A stretch of DNA of 64,000 bases from Candidatus Latescibacterota bacterium (GCA_965223905.1 CBDCXV010000011.1:1760001-1824000); one strand, 5' to 3'. Positions 45,368-58,778 are shown, counted from the first letter of the stretch. Notes: generated by a model from the sequence alone, not told the origin. A program made the numbers and translations.

Positions 45368-46747
45368 TCAGGACGGCCCCTGATCCTGGCGGCGCTGCCG
45401 CTTCTCCTGCATCTCGCGGGCGAGCCGCTCGAGGTTGGCGGCCGTGCTCGGCCTCGGGGCCTCCTCCCGCTCCCCCGACGGCTCCGTTTCCTCGACCTCC
45501 TCGCGCTGGTGGAACCCGAAACGGGCAGGGATGTCGCGGCGCTGGATGCGCCCGAGGACGGAGGCCAGCTCCTTGAGGCTGGCGGCGTTGTGGGCCGGGG
45601 CGAACAGATCGATGTGCGGCAGGGCGGCGCGCATGCCGCGGGTGTCGGGGCGGTACTCCTCGGAGCCGAGCAGCGGGTTGAGCCAGATCACCGCCAGGGA
45701 GCGGCGGTGGATGTCGCGCATGGCATCGCGCAACAGGTCGATGTCGCCGGTGTCCCAGCCGTCGCTCAGCAGGATGACCGCGGTCTGGTGGTCGAGCAAG
45801 CTGTCGCCGAATCCGTCGAGGAACGTCTGCAGGGAGGCGCCGATGCGCGTGCCCCCCGACCACTGCGGCACCTCCCGGGAGAGCGCGGCCAGCACCTCGT
45901 CGAGGTCCTCGTTGGCCAGGGTGTCGGTGACCCGCCGCAGGGAGGTGCTGAAGACGAAGGTCTCGACGCGCCGGCAGGCGAGCTGGAAGGCGTAGACGAA
46001 CTGGATGAGGAAGCTGCTGTAGAGGTCCATCGAGCGGCTGACGTCGCACAGCAGCACCAGCTTCAGGCGCCGGCGGCGGCGCTGCCTGAAGCTGAGATCG
46101 ACGAGCTCGCCGCCGCGGCGGAGATTGCGCCTGAGGGTGCGCCGCAGGTCGAGGCGGCCGCGGCGGGAGCTGTCGCGGTAGCGGCGGTTGAAGCGCCTGG
46201 CGAGGATCCGGGAGATCAGGGTGACCAGATGGCCGATCTCGTCGAGCTCGTCGGCGCGGAAGCCGGCAAAGTCCCGCCGGGCCATCACTTCGAAGGGGCT
46301 GTACCCGGCGGCCGGCTCCTCGTCGCCGGTCTTCTTCTCCCCCTTGAGCCAGGCGGTGACCGCCCTCAGCGCCGGCTGCTGTTCCGGTGCGCACGGATGG
46401 CGGATCTCCCTGTCCTCCTCCTCCTCTTCCCGCGCCCCCTGCCCCCGCAGAAGCTCGCCGGCGCGGTCCCAGACCTTCCAGTAGGAATCGAAAACCGAGT
46501 CGAAGATCTCCTGCTCCGGGCGGCTCTTGGCCAGGCAGGTCCTGAGCGCTTCGTAGAAATGCTGCCCGGTTCCGAGGTCGATTCGCTCCAGGGCGAGCAG
46601 GGCGTCGGCCGCCTCCGCCGCCCCCGGGCCGGCTCCCTCGCGGCGCAGCAGCCGGCAGAAGCCGACGACGTTGGCGCTCAGCTCCCCGCGCAGGGCGAGG
46701 TCCTCCGGTCCGGAAAATCCGCGGCCGTTCGAAGGTTCAGCGGCCAC
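45368..46747 (-). CDS. CoxE-like VWA domain protein
   Basis: LCDVSRSM MIDAS motif, FVFSTSL, WSGGTRIG, LSDGWDTG, IWLNPLLG. Confidence 0.88.
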   Translation of the reverse strand: MAAEPSNGRGFSGPEDLALRGELSANVVGFCRLLRREGAGPGAAEAADALLALERIDLGTGQHFYEALRTCLAKSRPEQEIFDSVFDSYWKVWDRAGELLRGQGAREEEEEDREIRHPCAPEQQPALRAVTAWLKGEKKTGDEEPAAGYSPFEVMARRDFAGFRADELDEIGHLVTLISRILARRFNRRYRDSSRRGRLDLRRTLRRNLRRGGELVDLSFRQRRRRRLKLVLLCDVSRSMDLYSSFLIQFVYAFQLACRRVETFVFSTSLRRVTDTLANEDLDEVLAALSREVPQWSGGTRIGASLQTFLDGFGDSLLDHQTAVILLSDGWDTGDIDLLRDAMRDIHRRSLAVIWLNPLLGSEEYRPDTRGMRAALPHIDLFAPAHNAASLKELASVLGRIQRRDIPARFGFHQREEVEETEPSGEREEAPRPSTAANLERLAREMQEKRQRRQDQGPS

Positions 46748-47687
46748 CGGCGGTCCTCGCCGCGGCCGGCCCCTCCTGAGCCTGCTCCGTTCCGGGAGGG
46801 GCCTTGGCGCGGATGCCGAGCTCTTCGAGGAACTCGGGAAGGGACTGCTGCATCTGGCGCACGTCCGTCCAGTCCTTGAACACCACCCCGAGGGTCTCCT
46901 CGACGATCCCGGGGTCGAGGTGGTTGCGGTGCAGGGCGACCAGGGCCTTGGCCCAGTCCAGGGTCTCGGCGACGCCGGGCACCTTCTCCAGCTTCTGCCG
47001 GCGCACCAGCGCCATGAAGCGGCAGATCTGGTCGGCGAGCTGCGCGTCGAGACCGTCGACCTTGCCGCGCACGATCGCCAGCTCCTTGTCGAACCCGGGG
47101 TAGTCGATCCACAGGTAGAGGCAGCGCCGGCGGATGGCGTCGGACAGCTCTCGGGTGCGGTTGGAGGTGATGACCACGTGCGGGATGTGGGTCGCGGCGA
47201 TGGTGCCGACCTCGGGGATCGAGATCTGCCAGTCGGAGAGCACCTCGAGCAGGAACGACTCGAACTCCTCGTCGGCGCGGTCGAGCTCGTCTATCAGCAG
47301 CACCGGCGGCCGGTGGTGGGTGATCGCCTCGAGCAGGGGCCGCTTGAGCAGGAAGGCCTCGCTGAAGATGTGGGACTGGCGCTCGTCGAGGCTGCGCTCC
47401 CCCCCTTCTTCGAGACGGATCTGGAGCAGCTGGCGCTGGTAGTTCCACTCGTACAGGGCGGTGCTGGTGTCGAGTCCCTCGTAGCACTGCAGACGGATCA
47501 GGTCGGTGTCGAGGGCCCGCGCCATCACCTTGGCGATCTCCGTCTTGCCTACGCCTGCCGGCCCCTCGACGAGGAGCGGCTTGTTCAGGGTTCGCGCCAG
47601 GTGAAGGGACATGGCGATGGCGGGATCGGCGACGTACTGCTGCTCGCGCAGCATCTTCTCGAGGCGCTCGGTTTCGGGATTCGCCAT
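46737..47687 (-). CDS. MoxR-family AAA+ ATPase (CoxD-like)
   Basis: EGPAGVGKT, RLQCYEGLD, LLIDELDRADEEFE, TSNRTRELSDAIRRRC. Confidence 0.9.
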   Translation of the reverse strand: MANPETERLEKMLREQQYVADPAIAMSLHLARTLNKPLLVEGPAGVGKTEIAKVMARALDTDLIRLQCYEGLDTSTALYEWNYQRQLLQIRLEEGGERSLDERQSHIFSEAFLLKRPLLEAITHHRPPVLLIDELDRADEEFESFLLEVLSDWQISIPEVGTIAATHIPHVVITSNRTRELSDAIRRRCLYLWIDYPGFDKELAIVRGKVDGLDAQLADQICRFMALVRRQKLEKVPGVAETLDWAKALVALHRNHLDPGIVEETLGVVFKDWTDVRQMQQSLPEFLEELGIRAKAPPGTEQAQEGPAAARTAGGR

Positions 47688-48017
47688 CGGCTTTCGTCGG
47701 CAGGTGGGGGAACCGGGATGGATGGGGATCCGTCTAGGCGGAACGGCCACTGCCCGGGTTGGACGGACGCCGCGGGTGCGCCTCGACGGGCCTAATATGC
47801 CTCCCCCAGGATGGGGTCGCAAACGGATTGCCGCCCCGGGGGCAGTCCGTATATTCCTGTCCTTTCTCAACTTAGCAGCCCGGATGGTTTATTCGACGGG
47901 CACCCGGGAGGTCGCGAAACCGATGAACCACCAGGGGGAGAATCACCGATTCCACGCCGCGGCCAGCAGGTTCGCGGCGAGCCGACCTCGACATACTGTT
48001 CATCCCTTTACCTCGGC

Positions 48018-49061
48018 ATGAGCTCGCACCCCCATCGCGGCCCTGTGCACGATCTCTTCGGCCGTCCGCTCGAAAGTCTGCGCCTCTCCGTCATCGACCG
48101 CTGCGACCTGCGCTGCGCCTACTGCATGCCGGAGGAGGACTACGCCTGGCTGCCCAAGGAGGACATCCTCTCCTTCGAGGAGATTGAGCGCACCGTCGAC
48201 GCCTTCGGCGAGCTGGGGGTGCGCAAGGTCCGCCTCACCGGCGGGGAACCACTCCTGCGCGGCGGCCTCGTCGATCTCGTCGCCCGCCTGGCCCGGCGTC
48301 CCGCGGTCGAGGACCTGGCAATGACGACGAACGCCACGCAGCTTGCCAAATGGGCCGAGCCGCTGCACCAGGCAGGGCTGAGCCGGGTAACGGTCAGTCT
48401 CGACACCCTCAACCCCGCCCGTTTCGAAACCCTGACCCGGCGCGTGGTCCTCGACCGCGTGCTCACCGGCATCCGCGAGGCTGTCCGCGTCGCCTTCTCC
48501 GACGTCAAGATCAACACCGTCATCATGCGGGGGTTCAACGACGACGAGCTCGTCGACCTGATCGAGTTCGGCAAGGAGGTCGGGGCCGAGGTCCGCTTCA
48601 TCGAGTACATGGACGTCGGCGGGGCCACCCTCTGGTCGATGGAGCGGGTCTTCTCCAAGGCGGACATTCTCGCGCGGCTCGAGGGGCACTACGGCGCCGT
48701 CGAGGCGGCCCCGGGCCGGGGGGCCGCGCCTGCCGAGCGCTTCCTCCTGCCCGACGGCACCTGTTTCGGCATCATCGCCTCCACCACGGAGCCGTTCTGC
48801 GCCACCTGCGACCGCAGCCGCGTCACCGCCGACGGCATGTGGTACCTCTGCCTGTACGCCAACGAAGGGTACAACCTGCGCGAGTGGCTGCGGGACGGGC
48901 TGACGCACCAGGATCTGATCGCACAGATCCGCCGTGTCTGGGAAGGCCGCAGGGACCGCGGCGCCGAGGAGCGTCTGAATGAACCGACGCGGGGGGCGCT
49001 CTACCACGTCGAAGAGCTGAAGGTCGACCCGCATCGCGAGATGCACACCCGGGGCGGATGA
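48018..49061 (+). CDS. moaA: GTP 3',8-cyclase (molybdenum cofactor biosynthesis)
   Basis: CDLRCAYC radical-SAM motif, RLTGGEP, RFIEYM, FCATCDRSRVTADG..LCL, C-terminal GG. Confidence 0.93.
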   Translation: MSSHPHRGPVHDLFGRPLESLRLSVIDRCDLRCAYCMPEEDYAWLPKEDILSFEEIERTVDAFGELGVRKVRLTGGEPLLRGGLVDLVARLARRPAVEDLAMTTNATQLAKWAEPLHQAGLSRVTVSLDTLNPARFETLTRRVVLDRVLTGIREAVRVAFSDVKINTVIMRGFNDDELVDLIEFGKEVGAEVRFIEYMDVGGATLWSMERVFSKADILARLEGHYGAVEAAPGRGAAPAERFLLPDGTCFGIIASTTEPFCATCDRSRVTADGMWYLCLYANEGYNLREWLRDGLTHQDLIAQIRRVWEGRRDRGAEERLNEPTRGALYHVEELKVDPHREMHTRGG

Positions 49062-49186
49062 CGGCGCTCTGTGGGACGTTGGACTTTCAATGTGTGACGC
49101 GCCTCGGATTGCCGTTCGCCTGAGGGCGAACGGCCACGGATTCCGACCGATGACGGCGCTCTGTGAGGCGTTGGGAATTCCAGTGG
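49057..49186 (+). repeat. Short imperfect direct repeat with 17-bp exact core
   Basis: GATGACGGCGCTCTGTG at 49057 and 49149, followed by similar tails (GGACGTTGGACTTTC and AGGCGTTGGGAATTC). Confidence 0.7.
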
Positions 49187-49351
49187 GATGGAGGGCTCAC
49201 CTCCCACCTCCACCCGCCGAACTGCTACGGAACCGGGGCCCGCTCCCGCGTTCCGGGACGTGATTTCCAGTGCAGGCGGGGTTTCGGTATTGCCCGGCGC
49301 CATGAAGCCCGCTCCCCTGGCGACGGCCATCCGCCGCTGACCTGTAACAAG

Positions 49352-51481
49352 ATGGAATACCCAGAAGCCAAGAAATTCCTCGACACCCTGCCCGACTGGG
49401 AGCGGGGACGCCCGCCTTCCGGTCCCCTGCACTACTACCTGCCGCGCACCCGGGCGCTGCTGCGGCGGCTGGGGAATCCGCAGAACGACTTCCGCTCGAT
49501 CATCGTCGGCGGGACCAACGGCAAGGGCACGGTTGCCAGCCTCCTCGACGCCCTGCTGCGCGCCGACGGCAGGACCGGGCTCTACACCTCCCCCCACCTG
49601 CACAGCCAGCGGGAGCGCATCCAGGTCGACGGGCGGCTGCTCAGCGCCGACGACTGGGCCGACGCGGTTACCTTCCTGTACGACGCGACCCGCCGCTTCG
49701 ACGCGGAGGGATTCGGCGGCTTCTCGAAATTCGAGGCGCTCACCGCGCTCGCCGCCCACCTGTTCTCGGCGGCCGGGGTGGACTACGCGCTGTTCGAGGT
49801 CGGTCTCGGGGGGCGCTACGACGCCACCAACGCCTGGGATCACGAGCTCTCGATGCTGACCAGCATCGCCGTCGACCACGCCGACGTCCTGGGGGAGGAC
49901 GTCCTGGAGATCGCCGCGGACAAGCTCTGCATCGTGCGGCCCGGGCGGCCGCTGTTCACCACCGATGCCCACGAGGCCGGGGTCGCCGGGCGAATCCGAC
50001 GCCACTGCGAGTCCGCGGGTGTGCCCCTTTACCTGGCTGGCGCAGGAGGTGTCCGCAGCACCGGGTCCCCCCAATGCGGCCCCGGGATGCCGTACCCGGC
50101 CTGCCCGCGGCCTGATGGTCCGCGTCCCGGCTCGTACCCGGCCAACGCCCGCCTGGCCCTGGCCGCGGCAGCCTTCCTGCTGGGGGACCGCCTCGTCCCC
50201 GCGGATGCGGAAGCGACGATCGCCCGGCACCAGTGGCCGGGCCGCTTCGAGGCGGTCGAGCGCGACTGCCGGCCGCTGGTCCTGCTCGACGGCGCTCACA
50301 ACCGGGCCGCGGCCGCCAGCCTCGCCGCGGACCTGCGGGCCCTGCATCCGAAGTGGAGCTTCGTCGTCGGGGTCGGGAGCGGGCACGACGCCGGCGCCGT
50401 CCTCGACTGCCTGGCGCCGCTGGCGGGGCAGGTGATCGCCACCTCCTCCGGCCACCCCAAGGCCCTGCCGCCCGAGGATCTGCTGAACCACCTCCCTGCA
50501 GAGGCTCCAGCAACCGTCGAGCCCTTGGCCCGGGCCTTCGAGGTCGCCGCCTCGGGCAAGCTGCCTGTCTGCGTCACCGGATCGCTGGCCCTGGTCGCGC
50601 GCGCCCGCGAGCACTTCCGTCTCCCGTGCGAAACCGAGGGGATCAGCGAAGAGGTCGCCCTCGAAAGCCTCGAGTGCCTCGAAATCGCCTGTCGGGCGCG
50701 CCGGCTCGAGTGCGAGAGGGTAACGGGCAACGCCAACGTCCTGCGGGTGGACGAGGCGGGAGGGCCGTTCTACTTCCTGCGCAACCGCCACCCGTTCAAC
50801 GACTACGCCGCGGCCAGGCTGGCCGAGGACAAGGGCTACCAGTACGAGCTGTTTGCCGCGGCCGGCCTGCCGGTCCCCTGCTCGATGCAGGTGTTCAACC
50901 CGTACGCCGACGACCGCTTTCACCGCTACAAGACCCACGGCAGCGTCGAAGAGATGCTCGACGACGTCGAAACGCGCATGCAGTATCCCCTGCTCATCAA
51001 GAAGCCGCGCGCCTCGGTCTCCCAGGGAGTCTACCTCGAGCGCGACCGCGAGGGGGCCGCGAGGCGCCTGGAAAGCCTGTTCACCGGCGGAGGTTTTCTC
51101 GACAACAGCCTGCTGATCCAGGCCTTCGTCGAGGGAGTGGAGTACCGCATCGTCGCCAGCGAAGCGGAGCTGCTGCTCGCCTACGAGAAGACCAGCGACG
51201 AGGTAGGCGGCGGTCTCAACCCCCTTCATCACGCCAGCGGGCGCGCCGTCAAGGTCGGGGACGAGCCGCTGCTGGCAGCGATGGCTGAGCTCACCCGGCG
51301 CGTCGCCGCGGTGATCCGGCTAGGGTTCTACGCCATCGACGTCATCGACGGCCCCGGGGGCCTGCGCATCATCGAGCTCAACCCCAACCCGTTCTGCTTC
51401 TTCTACAACCGCAGCAACGGGCGCGGCGACTTCGTCGCCATCTACGAACACCTCCTCGACAAGTACTTTCTCCGGACATGA
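49352..51481 (+). CDS. FolC-like (Mur ligase superfamily) protein fused to a C-terminal RimK-like ATP-grasp domain
   Basis: FolC motifs GGTNGKGT, YTSPHL, EVGLGGRYDATN, WPGRFE, LDGAHN, VTGSL; then DKGYQY, YPLLIKKP..S.SQGV, IQAFVEGVEYRI, AIDVI, IIELNPNP. Confidence 0.82.
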   Translation: MEYPEAKKFLDTLPDWERGRPPSGPLHYYLPRTRALLRRLGNPQNDFRSIIVGGTNGKGTVASLLDALLRADGRTGLYTSPHLHSQRERIQVDGRLLSADDWADAVTFLYDATRRFDAEGFGGFSKFEALTALAAHLFSAAGVDYALFEVGLGGRYDATNAWDHELSMLTSIAVDHADVLGEDVLEIAADKLCIVRPGRPLFTTDAHEAGVAGRIRRHCESAGVPLYLAGAGGVRSTGSPQCGPGMPYPACPRPDGPRPGSYPANARLALAAAAFLLGDRLVPADAEATIARHQWPGRFEAVERDCRPLVLLDGAHNRAAAASLAADLRALHPKWSFVVGVGSGHDAGAVLDCLAPLAGQVIATSSGHPKALPPEDLLNHLPAEAPATVEPLARAFEVAASGKLPVCVTGSLALVARAREHFRLPCETEGISEEVALESLECLEIACRARRLECERVTGNANVLRVDEAGGPFYFLRNRHPFNDYAAARLAEDKGYQYELFAAAGLPVPCSMQVFNPYADDRFHRYKTHGSVEEMLDDVETRMQYPLLIKKPRASVSQGVYLERDREGAARRLESLFTGGGFLDNSLLIQAFVEGVEYRIVASEAELLLAYEKTSDEVGGGLNPLHHASGRAVKVGDEPLLAAMAELTRRVAAVIRLGFYAIDVIDGPGGLRIIELNPNPFCFFYNRSNGRGDFVAIYEHLLDKYFLRT

Positions 51482-52632
51482 GCAAAAAGCGCGATATCGA
51501 GACCGACCTCATCCATTCGGGAGAGGGGGACAAGATCGAGGGCTCGGTGGTGCTGCCGGTGTTTCAGAGCGCCACCTACCTGTCGGGCGGGGAAACGGCG
51601 TACGAGGAGATCCGCTATCTGCGCCTCAACAACAGCCCCAATCACCGCGTCCTGCACGCCAAGCTCGCCGCGGTCTGCGGCGGCGAGGCCGCAATCGTCA
51701 CCTCTTCGGGGATGGCGGCGATCGCCGCGACCCTGATGGGGCTGCTGAAGGCGGGAGACCGCCTGCTGGCGCAGAGCTGCCTGTACGGGGGCACCCACAG
51801 CCTGTTCACCTGCGACCTTCCCGACTTCGGGCTGCAGGTGGATTTCATCGACGGCAACCGCCCCGACACCTGGGGCGAGGCGGCGACCCGGCGAACGCGC
51901 GCCATCTACGTCGAGACCATGGCCAACCCGCTGCTGGAAGTGGCCGATCTCGAAGCGGTGGTGGCTTTCGCGCGCGAGCGCGGCCTGATGTCCATCATCG
52001 ACAACACCTTCGGCACCCCGGTCAATTTCCGGTCGCTGCAACTGGGGTTCGACGTCGAGATTCACAGCGCCACCAAGTACCTCAACGGCCACTCCGACAT
52101 CGTCGCCGGCTGCGTCGTCGCCAACGGGGAGCTGATCTCCCGGATCGGGCGCCGGCTCAACCATCTCGGCGCAACCCTCGATCCGCACGCCTGTTTCCTG
52201 CTGCACCGGGGGATGAAGACGATGGCGCTGAGGGTGCGGCACCAGAACGCCTCGGCGTTGGCCCTAGCCGGGGCGCTCGAGCGCTGCGAGGCCGTGACGC
52301 AGGTGAACTACCCCGGGCTGGCCTCGCATCCCCAGCACGAGCGCGCGGCGCGGCTCTTCTCCGGCTGCGGCGGGGTCCTGAGCTTCGAGCTTTGCGGGGG
52401 AAGGCCGGCTGCGGAGAAGCTGCTGGAGCGGCTGCGGATACCGGCTTCGGCCCCCAGCCTCGGGGGCGTCGAGACCCTGATCACGCGGCCGGCAGCGACC
52501 TCGCACGCCGGCCTGTCGGAAGCGGAGCGGCAGACCCTGGGAATCGGCAGCGGCCTCGTCCGGGTGGCGGTCGGCATCGAGTCCGCGGCCGACCTGATCG
52601 CCGATTTCGAGCAGGGGCTGGCGGGGCTGTAG
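51478..52632 (+). CDS. Cys/Met metabolism PLP-dependent enzyme (cystathionine/methionine gamma-lyase family)
   Basis: SSGMAAI, ETMANP, DNTF, HSATKYLNGHSD (PLP lysine), SLGGVETL. ATGA overlap with the upstream gene. Confidence 0.9.
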   Translation: MSKKRDIETDLIHSGEGDKIEGSVVLPVFQSATYLSGGETAYEEIRYLRLNNSPNHRVLHAKLAAVCGGEAAIVTSSGMAAIAATLMGLLKAGDRLLAQSCLYGGTHSLFTCDLPDFGLQVDFIDGNRPDTWGEAATRRTRAIYVETMANPLLEVADLEAVVAFARERGLMSIIDNTFGTPVNFRSLQLGFDVEIHSATKYLNGHSDIVAGCVVANGELISRIGRRLNHLGATLDPHACFLLHRGMKTMALRVRHQNASALALAGALERCEAVTQVNYPGLASHPQHERAARLFSGCGGVLSFELCGGRPAAEKLLERLRIPASAPSLGGVETLITRPAATSHAGLSEAERQTLGIGSGLVRVAVGIESAADLIADFEQGLAGL

Positions 52633-52647
52633 GGGCTCCGGGGCTCC

Positions 52648-53832
52648 TCAGGCTCGTTCCTCTTCACGGGAGGGACCTGCCTCCTCCCCCCGGGCCTGAA
52701 GGCCGCGGCCGGACGGCAGAAAGAGGGCGAGAACCGCGGTCGCGACCGGCAGGACGGCGAGCAGGGTCAGGGCCGACTCGACGCCGATCCGTTCGGCGAG
52801 GTAGCCGATCGGCGCCAGCGTCAGTCCCGCGATCCCCCAGCTGAACCCAAGAGGCAGACTCGAGGCCAGTCCGGAGCTTTTCGGCACCAGTTCCTGGGCC
52901 ATGGCGACCAGCAGCGAGTTGGAGGCCATCACCATGGCGCCGCCGATTGCCAGCATTCCGTAGGCGACGAGGCCGTCGCTGTGGAGATAGCCGTAGAGGG
53001 AGGGAGCCGCGGCCAGGATCGATCCCCAGATCAGCGGCTTTCTGTCGAGGCGGTCCCCGAGATAGCCGAACAGCAACGCCCCGGCGACCCCTGCGAGGTT
53101 GTACAGCGAGAGCGGTATTCCTCCTGCGACGAGGTCGAGCCCGCGCGCCTCGGACAGCACCGGCAGGTAGAACCCGAAGCCCAGCCCGGTAACCGAGCGC
53201 AGGATGACGACGACCGTCATCAACAGCAGGATCCGCTTCCTGCCCTGCAGGCTGGCGCGCAGCGAGGTCCGTTGCCCATGGACCACGTGAGGGTTGTCGA
53301 GAGGCACGAAACGCCAGATCAGCAGAACGAGCAGAAGCCCGGGAAGGCCGGCCGCGGGCAGCCACTCCAGGCCGATCTCGGTGGCGTACCAGGGGACCCA
53401 GAGCGGCGAGAAGCCGAGTCCGAGGGTGCCGCCGAACACGAACAGGGCGATGCCGAAGGAGCGCCTGTGGCCGCTGAGCTCGCCGGCGAGCGAGAACGCC
53501 TGGGGGTGGAACGCTGCGACCCCGAGGCCCCCGAGGCAGAGCACGACCAGCAGCGTCCCGTAGTTGGAGACGATCCCGAGCATCGGGGTGAACAGGCCGG
53601 CCATGAGCAGACCGGCCAGCACGAGGTAGCGCCGGCGCATGCCGTCGGCCCACACCCCCAGCAGCGGCTGCGACAGGCTGCACAGCGAGGTGATGGTGCC
53701 GAGAAAGCCTGCCGAGGTCAGGGAAATCCCGAGCCGGCTGATGACGAGCGGCAGCACCGGGGCCAGCATCTGGGCGTACGAGTCGACGCAGAAATGCCCG
53801 ACGGCGATGAGGAAGAGCATGCCCTTGCGCAC
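52648..53832 (-). CDS. MFS transporter (Fsr-like)
   Basis: HFCVDSY, QPLLGVWAD, AAFHPQ, GYLGDRLDRK; about 12 TM segments. Confidence 0.87.
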   Translation of the reverse strand: MRKGMLFLIAVGHFCVDSYAQMLAPVLPLVISRLGISLTSAGFLGTITSLCSLSQPLLGVWADGMRRRYLVLAGLLMAGLFTPMLGIVSNYGTLLVVLCLGGLGVAAFHPQAFSLAGELSGHRRSFGIALFVFGGTLGLGFSPLWVPWYATEIGLEWLPAAGLPGLLLVLLIWRFVPLDNPHVVHGQRTSLRASLQGRKRILLLMTVVVILRSVTGLGFGFYLPVLSEARGLDLVAGGIPLSLYNLAGVAGALLFGYLGDRLDRKPLIWGSILAAAPSLYGYLHSDGLVAYGMLAIGGAMVMASNSLLVAMAQELVPKSSGLASSLPLGFSWGIAGLTLAPIGYLAERIGVESALTLLAVLPVATAVLALFLPSGRGLQARGEEAGPSREEERA

Positions 53833-56905: not shown

Positions 56906-57769
56906 TCAGTCCGTCGGGTACGATAGCGGCATCGTCGGTTCCCGCTCCTGGTGGCGGGTGCGCCCGCGGATCTCCATGGCGTGATATTCATCTATGAAGG
57001 CCGCCAGGTTCCGGCTCGCCTCCTCGAACACGATCCTGCCTTTTTCCGCGGTCGCTTTCTCCGCCTCCCCCATCACGCCGCTGTCCGAGTACTGGCTCGT
57101 CCACTGGATCAGTCCCATCGGCCCGGCGCTGAACAGGTCGGTCCAGACGAACTTCGAGCCGAGCTGGTTGGTCCTGGCGATCTCGCTCCTGATCTTCTCC
57201 TTGCGAACGCTCTCCGGGGACAGGTACAGCAGCATCGAGGTCTCGAGCTCGCAGGCGTGCGAGCAGCCCCCGGGGAAGACGCTCTCCCGCCATTCCTTGT
57301 CGAAGTCGGGGTTCACCCTCAACAGCTGCCACCAGCTGCAGAAGACGCAGCTCGCGTCGGTCTCGACGTGCACGCGCCGCGACACCATGTCGACGAGGTT
57401 GTGGTTAGAGCCGTGCCCGTTGACGAGGATCATCTTCTTGAAGCCGTGGTAGGCGAGCGACTTGCAAATATCGAGGACGTACTGGATGAAGTGCTCGAAG
57501 TGGATGTTGAGGGAGCCGGGAAAATCCATGACGTGGTGGACGTACCCGTAGGTGACCGGCGGCAGCACCAGGCTCAGCTCCGGTTTCAGTCGCGCCGCTT
57601 CCGCGGCGACGGAGTGGGCGCAGAGGTGGTCGACCTTCAGCGGCAGGTGGTGTCCGTGCTGTTCCACGGATCCGGTGGCGAGAATGGGGATCTTGCCCAT
57701 CTCCACGGCCTCGTTCACTTCGGGCCAGGTCAGCTCGTCGAACTGGTAGATCTCCTTCACCGATGGCAT
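56906..57769 (-). CDS. Creatininase family protein
   Basis: GSVEQHGHHLPLKVD, NGHGSN, HACELETS, ATAEKG. Confidence 0.9.
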   Translation of the reverse strand: MPSVKEIYQFDELTWPEVNEAVEMGKIPILATGSVEQHGHHLPLKVDHLCAHSVAAEAARLKPELSLVLPPVTYGYVHHVMDFPGSLNIHFEHFIQYVLDICKSLAYHGFKKMILVNGHGSNHNLVDMVSRRVHVETDASCVFCSWWQLLRVNPDFDKEWRESVFPGGCSHACELETSMLLYLSPESVRKEKIRSEIARTNQLGSKFVWTDLFSAGPMGLIQWTSQYSDSGVMGEAEKATAEKGRIVFEEASRNLAAFIDEYHAMEIRGRTRHQEREPTMPLSYPTD

Positions 57770-57928
57770 GCGGGGTTCTCCTGTGTTCGGGTGGAGGGGG
57801 AGGATGCCGGGCAGACCGCTTGGTCCCCCCGAAAGGAGCCGCGGTAGCGCTTCGGCCCCGGTCGAGTTCAGCCCGTTGAACAAGCCCATCCGGCCTGCAG
57901 CTTGCAGAGCAATTCTATCAACGGACAG

Positions 57929-58618
57929 TCAGGCCGATGCCGCCCAGTCGACATCGATTTCGTAAGAGAGGGGATCGCGGACCCCGTTGGCGCGGAACGC
58001 CGCTATGCGCTCGCTGCAGGCATCGCAGCGTCCGCACGCCGGCCGCCGCCCGGTGTAGCAGGTGTGGGTAAGCTCGTACGGGACCTGCAGGCGCCGCCCC
58101 TCGGCGATCACCCAGGCCTTCCACCTGTCGATCAACGGCGTGTGGATACGGTAGCGCCCTTCCTCGGCGGCGCCCAGCCCCAGAGTCTCCTCGACGCTGT
58201 CGTAAAACTCGCGGCGGCAATCGCGGTAGGCCTCGTAGTCTTCGCGCACCGCCGCAATGAACAGGTCGCGAATTCCGCGGGCCCCGGCGTACGCGGCACA
58301 GGCGGCGATGAACAGCAAGTTGCGGAACGGCACGACGGTGGCGCGCTGGCGCAACTCGTCGGCGTCTGGCACCTCGAGGGCGCCGTCGGTCAGCGGGTTT
58401 CCCCCGAGAGCGGACAGCAGCTCGAGGCCGAGCTCCTCGTGTCTTTCGACTCCGGCCCGGGCAGCGAGCTTGCGGGCGTACTCGAGCTCGACGCGATGGC
58501 GCTGGCCGTAGTCGATGGCGACCGTGTGGACCGGCCCCGGCCAACTGCCGCACACCTGCCAGAGACAGGTCGCCGAATCCATCCCGCCGCTGAGCAGGAC
58601 GGCGCAGGGAGCGGTCAC
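57929..58618 (-). CDS. queC: 7-cyano-7-deazaguanine synthase
   Basis: LLSGGMDS, YGQRH, VPFRN, YRDCR, CY...CGRCDAC. Start uncertain (GTG 58618 chosen). Confidence 0.88.
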   Translation of the reverse strand: MTAPCAVLLSGGMDSATCLWQVCGSWPGPVHTVAIDYGQRHRVELEYARKLAARAGVERHEELGLELLSALGGNPLTDGALEVPDADELRQRATVVPFRNLLFIAACAAYAGARGIRDLFIAAVREDYEAYRDCRREFYDSVEETLGLGAAEEGRYRIHTPLIDRWKAWVIAEGRRLQVPYELTHTCYTGRRPACGRCDACSERIAAFRANGVRDPLSYEIDVDWAASA

Positions 58619-58778
58619 GGCGCCTGCCGGGAGCGGTGCCGCGGGGAGCGCTGAAACGAGCCCGGGATTCTCAGGGGGAAGCGATAGCGGGCCGCCATGA
58701 GCCACCTGTTCATTCGTTGACGGCGCCGTACGGCGGTGATACGTTGGCATATCGATCGCGTATTGGCGGATTGCGACT

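Follow-up and report, generated by a model that had tools for sequence, protein, structure and literature searches.

A class-wide fusion of FolC to a RimK-like ATP-grasp ligase module in Latescibacterota

In the usual view, folates carry simple gamma-polyglutamate tails built by no ligase other than FolC, an enzyme recognised by its P-loop GTNGKG[ST], the lysine of the EKAGI segment, the DH..LG motif and the DGAHN motif of the C-terminal domain. CofF extends the tail of F420, and MptN that of methanopterin, with an alpha-linked glutamate. In cyanophycin synthetase CphA1 each ligase forms a different amide bond, and in GshAB the ATP-grasp domain adds the next residue to the gamma-glutamyl product. 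Alpha-linked glutamylation of folate in E. coli was reportedly described in 1986, and we know of no gene for it so far. Distal alpha linkages are possible in the folate tails of E. coli, for which no enzyme is named in the source (PMC1971073), and the glutamate tail of methylofuran is built by the ATP-grasp enzymes MyfA and MyfB (PMC8141765). Here we describe a protein in which FolC is joined to an ATP-grasp module. We found no description of this architecture in the literature, in agreement with the first-pass annotation of this DNA, which did not know it as characterised; the ATP-grasp amidoligase survey of Iyer et al. 2009 lies outside the coverage of our search.

The window, that is the whole stretch of DNA analysed, comprises 64,000 nucleotides from a Candidatus Latescibacterota bacterium. 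A single open reading frame on the plus strand (49352-51481) encodes 709 amino acids, with the FolC module at the N-terminus and a RimK-like ATP-grasp module at the C-terminus. This arrangement had been read from the DNA by the first-pass annotation, and it is borne out by TIGR01499 and Pfam RimK matches above cut-off and by the hhalign alignment to RimK (see below). The start of the fusion is likely at 49352, since M1 and Y3 are invariant across 34 aligned relatives; the frame is also open from an alternative upstream GTG at 49163, which would give a longer product. The annotation had itself raised the possibility that two separate genes were merged, through loss of a stop codon or during assembly; this explanation, or a frameshift with the same effect, is almost certainly wrong on the evidence from contigs and relatives. 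It could be invoked for the few short database proteins that match the C-terminal part alone, and for a MAG contig (L069) in which the match ends after residue ~464. However, the short forms found on long contigs start within the FolC C-terminal domain, and are cut gene calls and not free genes, while L069 is a duplicate of L068, from the same MAG, followed by frame-less sequence. In addition, the long frame is present in 123 genomes, many of which are single-contig assemblies, and both the domain boundary and the junction with the downstream gene are spanned by Logan contigs from three independent studies (X1, 50272-51576, 0 differences; X3, 50272-52092, 3 differences; X7, 50505-51576, 6 differences). 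A split gene was therefore rejected on the grounds of the bridging contigs, the cut gene calls and the duplication of L068. The sole indel listed among the Logan contigs is intergenic, behind position 49080, and none falls within the reading frame. One RNA run (X22) gave three small contigs only (49254-49432, a piece near 49700, and 52392-52551), insufficient for a claim about transcription, and an Rfam search of the window found no riboswitch or other RNA family.

The FolC (dihydrofolate synthase / folylpolyglutamate synthase) module covers residues 1-420 (49352..50611, plus strand). The TIGR01499 folC model gave 256.1 bits over residues 30-420, and 257.5 bits in the search of the genome, as compared to a cut-off of 162.65, which places the module within the family; the top solved relatives are FolC/FPGS structures, namely 2vor (2.6e-42), 1fgs, 1o5z and 1w78. 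Residues G54, G57 and K58 of the P-loop, E149-G154, D157-N160, D175, H176, K191 and D313-N317 (DGAHN) are invariant in 34 fusions. Taken as motifs, the P-loop, the EKAGI lysine, DH..LG and DGAHN are invariant or at least 90% conserved in 34-66 fusions and align with plain FolC; the P-loop itself reads GGTNGKGT (residues 53-60, 49508..49531), as in plain FolC, in at least 90% of the fusions. The first-pass annotation had pointed out that the usual EKAGII segment is replaced by DKLCIV (residues 190-195, 49919..49936), and this is indeed the case, at a site with EKAGI[IV] in the plain FolCs of the phylum. K191, which we take to be the position of the lysine carbamylated in solved FPGS structures, is kept in 34/34 fusions, and D190 and I194 in at least 90% of them, whereas the glycine is not retained, so that the pattern becomes DKxxI. 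The fused module is diverged overall. In fact, it scores about 257 bits against TIGR01499 as compared to 333-378 for the plain FolCs of the phylum, with which it shares 30-39% identity; ahead of the 'NA' motif, the sequence varies or has become shorter, and other residues stand in place of the usual G.HQ. PF27239 (FOL3_C) is found on 96% of the Atlas cluster to which the fusion belongs.

The fusion is the only FolC above cut-off in the TIGR01499 search of the genome, which settles whether a separate folC is also present, and no CofE-type FolC2 was found in this genome. FolP, FolK, DHFR and PabB are encoded, so the de novo folate pathway is present. No RimK-family match above cut-off was found in the genome.

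A linker of partial conservation (LP.E...E; residues 421-436, 50612..50659) leads into the RimK-like ATP-grasp ligase module, of ~275-290 amino acids (residues 437-709, 50660..51478, plus strand). The Pfam RimK model (PF08443) gave 21.6 bits with the whole protein and 23.7 with the domain alone, a small margin over the cut-off of 21; the same model matches 47/48 aligned relatives at E <= 0.01 (best 1.3e-12). Comparison with E. coli RimK by hhalign gave 94.8% probability over 189 columns (RimK residues 84-275), with the catalytic residues retained. The nearest curated family is TIGR00768 (RimK-family alpha-L-glutamate ligase), matched by 48/48 relatives (best E 6.8e-19); nevertheless, its score is 36.2 bits with the whole protein and 39.5 with the domain, as compared to a cut-off of 143.4. 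Because the score lies so far below the RimK-family cut-off, the donor and the acceptor of the module are not readable from homology. CofF (TIGR04443, cut-off 300) and MptN (NF040720, cut-off 350) matched 5/48 and 10/48 relatives, respectively, at E <= 0.01 (best 1.6e-5 and 6.4e-5), below their cut-offs, and neither model is among the NCBIfam matches of the window protein. Six residues, K550, E597, R599, D663, E675 and N677 (K126, E173, R175, D239, E251 and N253 in domain numbering), are invariant in 48/48 relatives (alignment A1). Of these, K550, D663, E675 and N677 align to RimK, and the stretch from D663 to E675-x-N677 (51338..51382) was matched to the C-terminal 'D ... E-x-N' of RimK by both hmmsearch and hhalign; in ATP-grasp enzymes, these are presumably the metal ligands, and the conserved lysine presumably binds ATP.

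Judged from their conserved residues, both modules are predicted to be catalytically competent, and both are under purifying selection. The FolC module has a dN/dS ratio of 0.11-0.27 and the ATP-grasp module one of 0.05-0.35; in 8/8 close pairs the lower dN is that of the ATP-grasp module, and mean column identity is 63% in each of the two. Complex prediction between the two modules, each supplied with its alignment, gave an ipSAE of 0.00 in both runs, a value that speaks neither for nor against contact.

We surveyed 168 genomes of the phylum Latescibacterota. The fusion is present in about 124 of the 129 genomes belonging to three families of one class (71/75, 21/22 and 31/31 in f1, f3 and f4, respectively), with open frames of 674-1108 amino acids and a single one of 529 (G096); the remaining 39 surveyed genomes, outside these families, gave one weak match. 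Five low or absent cases were checked and correspond to three genomes without any assembled folC and two genes that are truncated where the contig stops. That the domain was secondarily lost in some members of the three families was rejected, since the misses checked are due to missing assembly or contig ends. The 120 protein clusters listed are all 667-768 amino acids long, with 90-100% query coverage and 52-91% identity. Sister lineages in the phylum have a plain FolC of 438-460 amino acids without the ATP-grasp domain. The fusion is thus fixed in one class of Latescibacterota.

In the tree, the fused ATP-grasp domains group together with a support of 100; the sister group of this clade consists of 13 free-standing proteins, and we conclude that the module was acquired once from a free-standing gene of ~280 amino acids. 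The sister proteins (P0127-P0138 and related) are either unnamed in the sources examined or called 'glutathione synthase/RimK-type ligase-like' by JGI. The free-standing relatives belong to other organisms, for the most part with a low G+C content and represented by metagenomes only; they share 36-54% identity with the fused domain, their alignment starts at about position 13 of it, and 128 of the best 150 clusters at 50% identity are 255-330 amino acids long. Some carry N-terminal extensions, in which no Pfam domain was found. Almost every invariant residue, two cysteines among them, is also present in the free-standing relatives, which indicates that the reaction does not require an attached FolC. 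A metagenome locus scan with an 11-row alignment returned 28 loci, 24 of which were again fusions and only one of which (L083) was free-standing. This closest free-standing relative with a visible context is surrounded by SOD, YebC, LexA, MutS and MutL genes, and no folate gene was found near it in this one context. A scan of viral contigs for free-standing relatives gave no loci.

The stop codon of the fusion (TGA) overlaps the ATG of the next gene (ATGA, 51478..51481, plus strand). The overlap, already noticed by the first-pass annotation, is present in the contigs of the three studies mentioned above. The downstream gene (51478..52632, plus strand) encodes a 384-residue PLP enzyme of Cys/Met metabolism (cystathionine gamma-synthase / gamma-lyase / methionine gamma-lyase family), with 401.4 bits against PF01053 over residues 8-381 (cut-off 27). 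The assignment stays at the level of this family, since no NCBIfam equivalog reaches cut-off: the best, met_gam_lyase, gave 340.6 bits as compared to 549.7, and all the others listed are likewise below. The annotation had proposed this enzyme as a coupled partner, which does not hold as a defining trait. The PLP gene lies downstream of the fusion in 37 of the 79 genome loci found, the tree confines it to one of two deep clades (29/36 rows vs 0/30), and L003 and L014, the two closest relatives, are the only ones in which the tblastn alignments of fusion and PLP gene adjoin as in the window. It is also one of only two PF01053 genes in the genome, and so has the appearance of an enzyme of ordinary Cys/Met metabolism. 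The clade-limited occurrence and the two PF01053 genes rule it out as a dedicated partner, and we see no indication that a sulfur amino acid is ligated, a further suggestion of the same annotation.

Upstream of the fusion, in the same direction, lies moaA, encoding GTP 3',8-cyclase (48018..49061, plus strand), identified by TIGR02666 (351.6 bits vs a cut-off of 284.05) and by the Pfam Radical_SAM and Mob_synth_C domains. Its start was set by the extent of homology, the frame being open from 47811. This gene precedes the fusion in 46/79 loci, all within one deep clade. A sigma-70-like promoter match (47828..47855, plus strand) agrees with 9/12 consensus positions and is a consensus match only; one such site was found as compared to 0.2 expected in shuffles. 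From this match, moaA, the fusion and the PLP gene may form one transcription unit. A terminator-like hairpin directly 3' of the PLP gene (52641..52655, plus strand) was discarded as no better than chance, with 1 found vs 2.1 expected in shuffles. No neighbour gene conserved in both deep clades was found, and we consider moaA and the PLP gene as synteny of one sub-lineage and no part of the enzyme machine.

Long-lived class-wide fusions usually join steps of one pathway, and we infer that this may hold here too. A mixed-linkage folate tail, one of the readings of the first-pass annotation, appears to be the best hypothesis for the fusion: it is quite possible, although we hold this view tentatively and by analogy with CofF, MptN and the unassigned E. 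coli activity on folate, that this is a genuine two-enzyme protein in which the FolC product is the substrate of the ATP-grasp module, giving a capped or mixed-linkage tail. The FolC module is the housekeeping FolC of the cell, predicted to join glutamate to dihydropteroate first and to lengthen the gamma-linked tail afterwards. At the tip of the folyl-gamma-glutamyl tail, the ATP-grasp module would phosphorylate a free carboxylate and couple it to L-glutamate in alpha linkage, or to a different amino acid, so that the product would be a tail that is capped or of mixed linkage. The narrower assignment of the module as a folylpolyglutamate:alpha-L-glutamate (or other amino acid) ligase, with the free-standing ~280-residue relatives being the same folate-tail ligase elsewhere, is a more doubtful proposal. 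Several observations weigh against a folate tail as the acceptor: the distance from the RimK-family cut-off (36-40 vs 143.4 bits), the context of L083, the near-complete set of invariant residues in proteins that are not joined to FolC, the sister lineages that do with a plain FolC, and the lack of a neighbour common to the two deep clades. In a rather unlikely alternative, the substrate of the module would be unrelated to folate: it might act on the C-terminus of a protein, in the manner of RimK with ribosomal protein S6, or produce poly-alpha-glutamate or some other small amide, and the two modules would be joined just for coupled expression or for a common use of glutamate and ATP. The best-matching characterised enzyme is RimK, whose role the module could fill in a genome with no RimK-family match above cut-off, free-standing relatives are many, the one context seen (L083) has no folate gene, and the Atlas look-alikes of the module, which are YheC/YheD-like and RimK-like, have no known role. 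Nevertheless, class-wide fusions with a short and partly conserved linker would rarely join unrelated enzymes, and the equal mean column identity of the two modules also speaks against this alternative.

It is also conceivable, but improbable, that the module serves another step of the same pathway, either feeding FolC with a ready peptide (e.g. Glu-Glu), as Ddl does for MurF, or taking over one of the classical FolC reactions (e.g. the addition of glutamate to dihydropteroate or pABA). The divergence of the fused FolC, with its altered stretch ahead of the 'NA' motif and the replaced G.HQ, would be accounted for, and the order of a Mur-type ligase followed by an ATP-grasp domain has a precedent in the NCBIfam bifunctional MurC/Ddl model NF011171, the name MurC-Ddl being in use in the literature. 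On the other hand, all the catalytic motifs of FolC are invariant, with no sign of an activity handed over, and to our knowledge FolC enzymes do not add peptides. The low scores of the module against every curated ATP-grasp family could suggest a non-catalytic domain, sensing nucleotide or glutamate or promoting oligomerisation on behalf of FolC. We regard this as very unlikely, considering that the Lys, the Glu/Arg and the D...E-x-N residues are aligned with RimK and invariant in 48/48 relatives, and that purifying selection is as strong on this module as on FolC. Hardly any weight can be given to a circularly permuted enzyme of the cyanophycin synthetase type making a non-ribosomal amino-acid polymer; a cyanophycin-like polymer had also been envisaged by the first-pass annotation. 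Both folds of that synthetase are present, some homologues bear its name at NCBI, its families are the Atlas neighbours at 0.86-0.87, and TIGR02068 and PRK14016 match weakly; however, the latter scores are 20.2 and 18.8 bits as compared to cut-offs of 850 and 877, and the Mur-type module is specifically FolC (TIGR01499; PF27239 FOL3_C), the sole one in a genome that also encodes FolK, FolP, PabB and DHFR.

A housekeeping FolC joined, throughout a class, to a second intact amide ligase suggests that an extra step on the tail may exist, which might cap it, switch the linkage or bring in a different amino acid. Retention of the cofactor, enzyme affinity and the response to hydrolases could all be affected by it. 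The fusion offers a testable handle on a large family of free-standing ATP-grasp proteins and on alpha-linked folate glutamylation; if the folate-tail ligase reading were true, this would be the first gene for glutamylation of the E. coli type. Should the module act on another substrate, it would still be a clean, lineage-defining fusion in an uncultured phylum. In either case, it corrects database labels such as 'cyanophycin synthetase'.

Compared to the FolC enzymes of E. coli and M. tuberculosis and to the FPGS of L. casei, the fusion shares the P-loop, the EKAGI lysine, DH..LG and DGAHN, but its FolC part is diverged and a C-terminal ATP-grasp ligase is added. The latter has the same fold and the same size (~275 amino acids) as RimK, CofF, MptN and LysX, keeps the catalytic residues of RimK, and differs from the RimK family in that it scores below the curated cut-off, leaves its N-terminal ~55 residues unaligned and is joined to FolC. 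Its sister group, the free-standing ~280-residue proteins, is unfused. CphA1 likewise has an ATP-grasp and a Mur-type ligase in one chain; here, however, the Mur-type part is FolC instead of the CphA M domain, and the order is reversed, with the Mur-type module first and the ATP-grasp module second, as the first-pass annotation had recognised, so that both scores and domain order exclude the fusion from TIGR02068 and PRK14016. We found no sign of polymer synthesis either. A ligase followed by a C-terminal Ddl- or RimK-like ATP-grasp domain is also found in Chlamydia MurC-Ddl and in GshAB/GshF, where the two enzymes belong to the same pathway. These pathways are those of peptidoglycan and glutathione, and the relationship with the fusion is limited to shared folds; the GshAB structures 3ln6 and 3ln7 are weak matches of the ATP-grasp module.

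The window contains, within DNA of ~65-70% G+C, a single open frame of 709 codons on the forward strand (49352-51481), whose product consists of a FolC module (residues 1-420), a short and partly conserved linker (LP.E...E, residues 421-436) and a RimK-like ATP-grasp domain (residues 437-709). An alternative GTG start at 49163 would add 63 residues to the protein; since the 34 aligned relatives all begin where M1 aligns, and neither M1 nor Y3 varies among them, 49352 is likely to be the start codon. The NCBIfam folC model TIGR01499 scored 256.1 bits on residues 30-420 (cut-off 162.65), and the solved structures closest to the N-terminal part are those of FolC/FPGS (2vor, 2.6e-42; 1fgs; 1o5z; 1w78). 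The RimK-family model of NCBIfam gave a weak match on residues 482-680 (36.2 bits, cut-off 143.4), and Pfam reported Mur_ligase_C together with RimK at 21.6, barely above the gathering score of 21. According to these curated tests, the protein classifies as a FolC family member with a part that is RimK-like, outside the RimK family, and cyanophycin synthetase is excluded. The first-pass annotation had described the locus correctly in every checkable point, including the segment DKLCIV, which corresponds to residues 190-195, where plain (unfused) FolCs of the same phylum have EKAGI[IV]. It knew of no characterised example of the architecture, and in the full-text literature, whose coverage leaves out most subscription journals, we likewise found no description of a FolC + RimK-like ATP-grasp fusion.

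We considered whether the fusion might be an artefact, namely two genes joined in the assembly. The stretch was found in nine sequencing runs from three studies, with 0.68-0.97 of its sampled words present. In each study, Logan contigs of one run span the domain boundary (about 50612-50660) as well as the junction with the next gene (51478), with 0 (run X1, 50272-51576), 3 (run X3, 50272-52092) and 6 (run X7, 50505-51576) differences; the sole indel listed among the Logan contigs falls in the intergenic spacer, behind 49080. The best 120 protein clusters, mostly from Candidatus Latescibacteria MAGs, are 667-768 aa long, with 90-100% query coverage and 52-91% identity, and where named are called 'dihydrofolate synthase/folylpolyglutamate synthase', 'cyanophycin synthetase' or 'hypothetical'. 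A species-representative genome collection yielded 79 fusion loci, in 77 of which residues 41-706 or more are matched. With contigs of three studies bridging the boundary and this span at nearly all loci, the fusion stands as one gene, and the probability of an artefact is negligible. At locus L066 the gene is cut by the contig end. Locus L069 lies on a second contig of the MAG that also yields L068. It repeats the L068 fusion gene as far as about residue 464, beyond which the sequence has no recognisable frame; L069:6995-9871 reads on as a 958-aa frame without a recognisable domain. Chimeric assembly within that MAG is the most likely reading, rather than a variant architecture. Short database proteins matching the C-terminal part alone are fragments; those on long contigs start within the FolC C-terminal domain.

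The distribution of the fusion was surveyed in the 168 genomes of the window's GTDB phylum with a C-terminal domain profile (from alignment A1, 48 sequences, residues 425-709). At E <= 1e-10, 125 genomes matched, 123 of them strongly (E <= 1e-118) and in open frames of 674-1108 aa; one frame is 529 aa long (G096), and one match (G148) contains an internal TGA. The domain was present in 71/75, 21/22 and 31/31 genomes of three families (f1, f3 and f4) of the window's class, and the A1 profile found it in none of the three genomes of the fourth family, f2. The 36 genomes of other classes gave one weak match (42.8 bits, 317-aa frame). Among low or absent cases in f1 and f3, leaving out one genome that is 58% complete (G127), we checked five: three (G117, G154 and G044) had no folC assembled at all, and in two (G115 and G147) the fusion gene was cut by a contig end, so no secondary loss was seen in these five genomes. 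In lineages without the fusion, four of five genomes tested have an unfused FolC, in a frame of 438-460 aa (333-378 bits), and identity between these plain FolCs and the fused module is only 30-39%.

A separate folC was sought in the genome that the window comes from (7.9 Mb, 93.6% complete). The fusion is the sole match above cut-off, no CofE-type alternative was found in this genome, and matches were obtained for FolP (294 bits), FolK (128), DHFR (154) and PabB (335). The FolC module is thus predicted to be the working FolC of the genome. The P-loop GTNGKGT, Y.SPHLH, FEVGLGG..DATN, LDH...LG, K191 and LDGAHNP are invariant or at least 90% conserved across fusions. Even so, the module has diverged. 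Its score is 257 bits, the region preceding the NA motif (residues ~225-262 of the window's protein) varies and is frequently shortened, and RP.T[YF] stands in place of the usual G.HQ.

The ATP-grasp module is as conserved as the FolC module, with a mean column identity of 63% in A1. The 55 invariant columns include K550, E597, R599, D663, E675 and N677 (K126, E173, R175, D239, E251 and N253 in domain numbering). A profile search of solved structures retrieved DdlB (8evy, 4.6e-6) and RimK (5zct and 4iwx, about 2e-5), and an hhalign comparison aligned the domain to E. coli RimK over 189 columns (94.8% probability, 22% identity); in these alignments the six residues line up with their counterparts in RimK and Ddl. 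Among 48 relatives, Pfam matches comprised RimK (47), ATPgrasp_ST (38), ATP-grasp_3 (36) and Dala_Dala_lig_C (33), and NCBIfam matches rimK_fam (48), LysX (47), cyanophycin synthetase (39), Ddl (38), MptN (10) and CofF (5), the NCBIfam scores of the window's own protein, and the best rimK_fam E-value among the relatives (6.8e-19), lying far under the cut-offs. As the first-pass annotation proposed, the ATP-grasp domain is complete, and judged by sequence it is a ligase with its catalytic residues intact. In eight close pairs, dN/dS (Nei-Gojobori) was 0.11-0.27 for FolC and 0.05-0.35 for linker plus ATP-grasp; dN was lower in ATP-grasp than in FolC in all eight pairs, and dN/dS in six.

When the C-terminal domain profile was searched against 1.84 billion representatives, 1797 proteins matched at E <= 1e-3; tightening the threshold to 1e-10 left 417, and to 1e-30 left 127. 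The best 150 are mostly free-standing proteins of 255-330 aa spanning the whole domain; they are of metagenomic origin, unnamed or with a generic JGI label, and keep nearly all the invariant residues of the fused domain. In a FastTree phylogeny of 12 fused domains and 128 free-standing proteins, the fused domains form a single clade (support 100), sister to 13 free-standing proteins, which fits one capture event. The free-standing family P0127-P0271 (~255-330 aa) shares invariant residues including two Cys, and its closest group also has an NPLH segment. The one readable free-standing locus (L083:3062-4030, 44% G+C) lies among genes for SOD, a cupredoxin-like protein, YebC, LexA, MutS and MutL. 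In the ESM Atlas, the clusters closest to the domain are short RimK/YheCD-like proteins, and the fusion family itself is a 113-member cluster named by domains alone (Mur_ligase_C, FOL3_C, RimK). A Bacillota cluster there (53 members, about 742 aa, Mur_ligase_M + ATPgrasp_YheCD + Mur_ligase_C, 0.87 to the query) may be a second, independent fusion of a Mur-type ligase with an ATP-grasp domain.

The fusion is followed by a Cys/Met-metabolism PLP gene (51478-52632, forward strand, 384 codons; PF01053, 401 bits, below cut-off for every NCBIfam equivalog model) and preceded by moaA (48018-49061, forward strand; TIGR02666, 351.6 bits). The first-pass annotation saw the PLP gene as translationally coupled to the fusion; the overlap of its start with the TGA stop in the tetranucleotide ATGA at 51478 is real, but the gene was found downstream in only 37/79 loci, with moaA upstream in 46/79. 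When 66 full-length fusions were placed on a tree, the two neighbours proved to be restricted to one of its two deep clades, the PLP gene (29/36 in one clade, 0/30 in the other) with four changes and moaA with two. No gene common to the flanks of both clades emerged when the flanking ORFs were clustered de novo; in the clade lacking both, neighbours include a GH106 rhamnosidase. Since the PLP gene is a one-clade neighbour, abuts the fusion in the alignments as it does in the window only at loci L003 and L014, and is one of just two PF01053 genes in the genome, it is ordinary lineage synteny and no part of the device. Methionine synthesis uses methyl-folate polyglutamate, and through it the proximity may make metabolic sense.

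The moaA-fusion spacer (49062-49351) measures 290 nt, compared with a median of 19 nt for this gap among 46 relatives. It contains a direct repeat of 26 nt (copies at 49057-49082, overlapping the moaA stop, and 49149-49174; 92% identical, 92 nt apart), and in one X1 contig 49054 is joined to 49378 via 40 other letters. On these grounds the spacer would seem to be an insertion or duplication peculiar to the strain. A sponge-metagenome metatranscriptome (X22) has small contigs at 49254-49432 (3 differences), beginning about 98 nt 5' of the proposed fusion start codon, and at 52392-52551 (0 differences), too little for a claim on transcription or habitat. Upstream of moaA, on the opposite strand, lies a MoxR-like AAA ATPase and CoxE-type VWA protein pair (45368-47681); the VWA gene is syntenic in 27/79 loci. 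The reverse strand at 56909-58639 encodes a creatininase-family protein (PF02633, 217 bits, under all NCBIfam cut-offs) and QueC (TIGR00364, 166.5 bits, cut-off 150.3). With moaA and the fusion, several genes serving pathways to cofactors or bases made from GTP thus lie close together, a clustering that may be due to chance. Elsewhere, at locus L082 (G000:C2:319013-319789), a DHPS (folP) match sits in a 549-aa open frame, twice the usual length, and the ORF list shows 1033-2331 (432 aa) across it; either a second folate enzyme may be fused to it, or the frame is merely open because the DNA is high in G+C.

As regards function, the fusion is one polypeptide with two ligase modules whose catalytic residues are intact. 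It is the sole FolC of a genome that also encodes FolK, FolP, PabB and DHFR, has a single origin, and is retained class-wide under purifying selection. We tentatively propose, by analogy, that the FolC module would form dihydrofolate and gamma-polyglutamates, and that the ATP-grasp module would then convert a carboxylate at the tail's end into an acyl phosphate and attach glutamate to it in alpha linkage, or else a different amino acid; we hold this proposal as a whole to be possible, a little short of even. A precedent for it is offered by CofF and MptN, both named alpha-L-glutamate ligases in NCBIfam, their chemistry being that of alpha-linked glutamate addition. Distal alpha linkages are possible in E. 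coli folate tails, according to a statement in PMC1971073 that cites Ferone et al. 1986, and a further precedent is MyfA with MyfB, in what PMC8141765 says of methylofuran. The ATP-grasp module might instead act on something unrelated, for instance the C-terminus of a protein; its likeness to RimK is compatible with this, and we consider it doubtful for a fusion kept throughout a class. It is less probable still that the module performs another step of the same pathway.

A non-catalytic domain would agree with the low family scores; set against the invariant catalytic residues, it is very unlikely. Even less credence goes to a cyanophycin-like polymerase, which the first-pass annotation had entertained: many relatives match the cyanophycin synthetase model and some clusters bear that name, but the fusion fails the curated test for the family.
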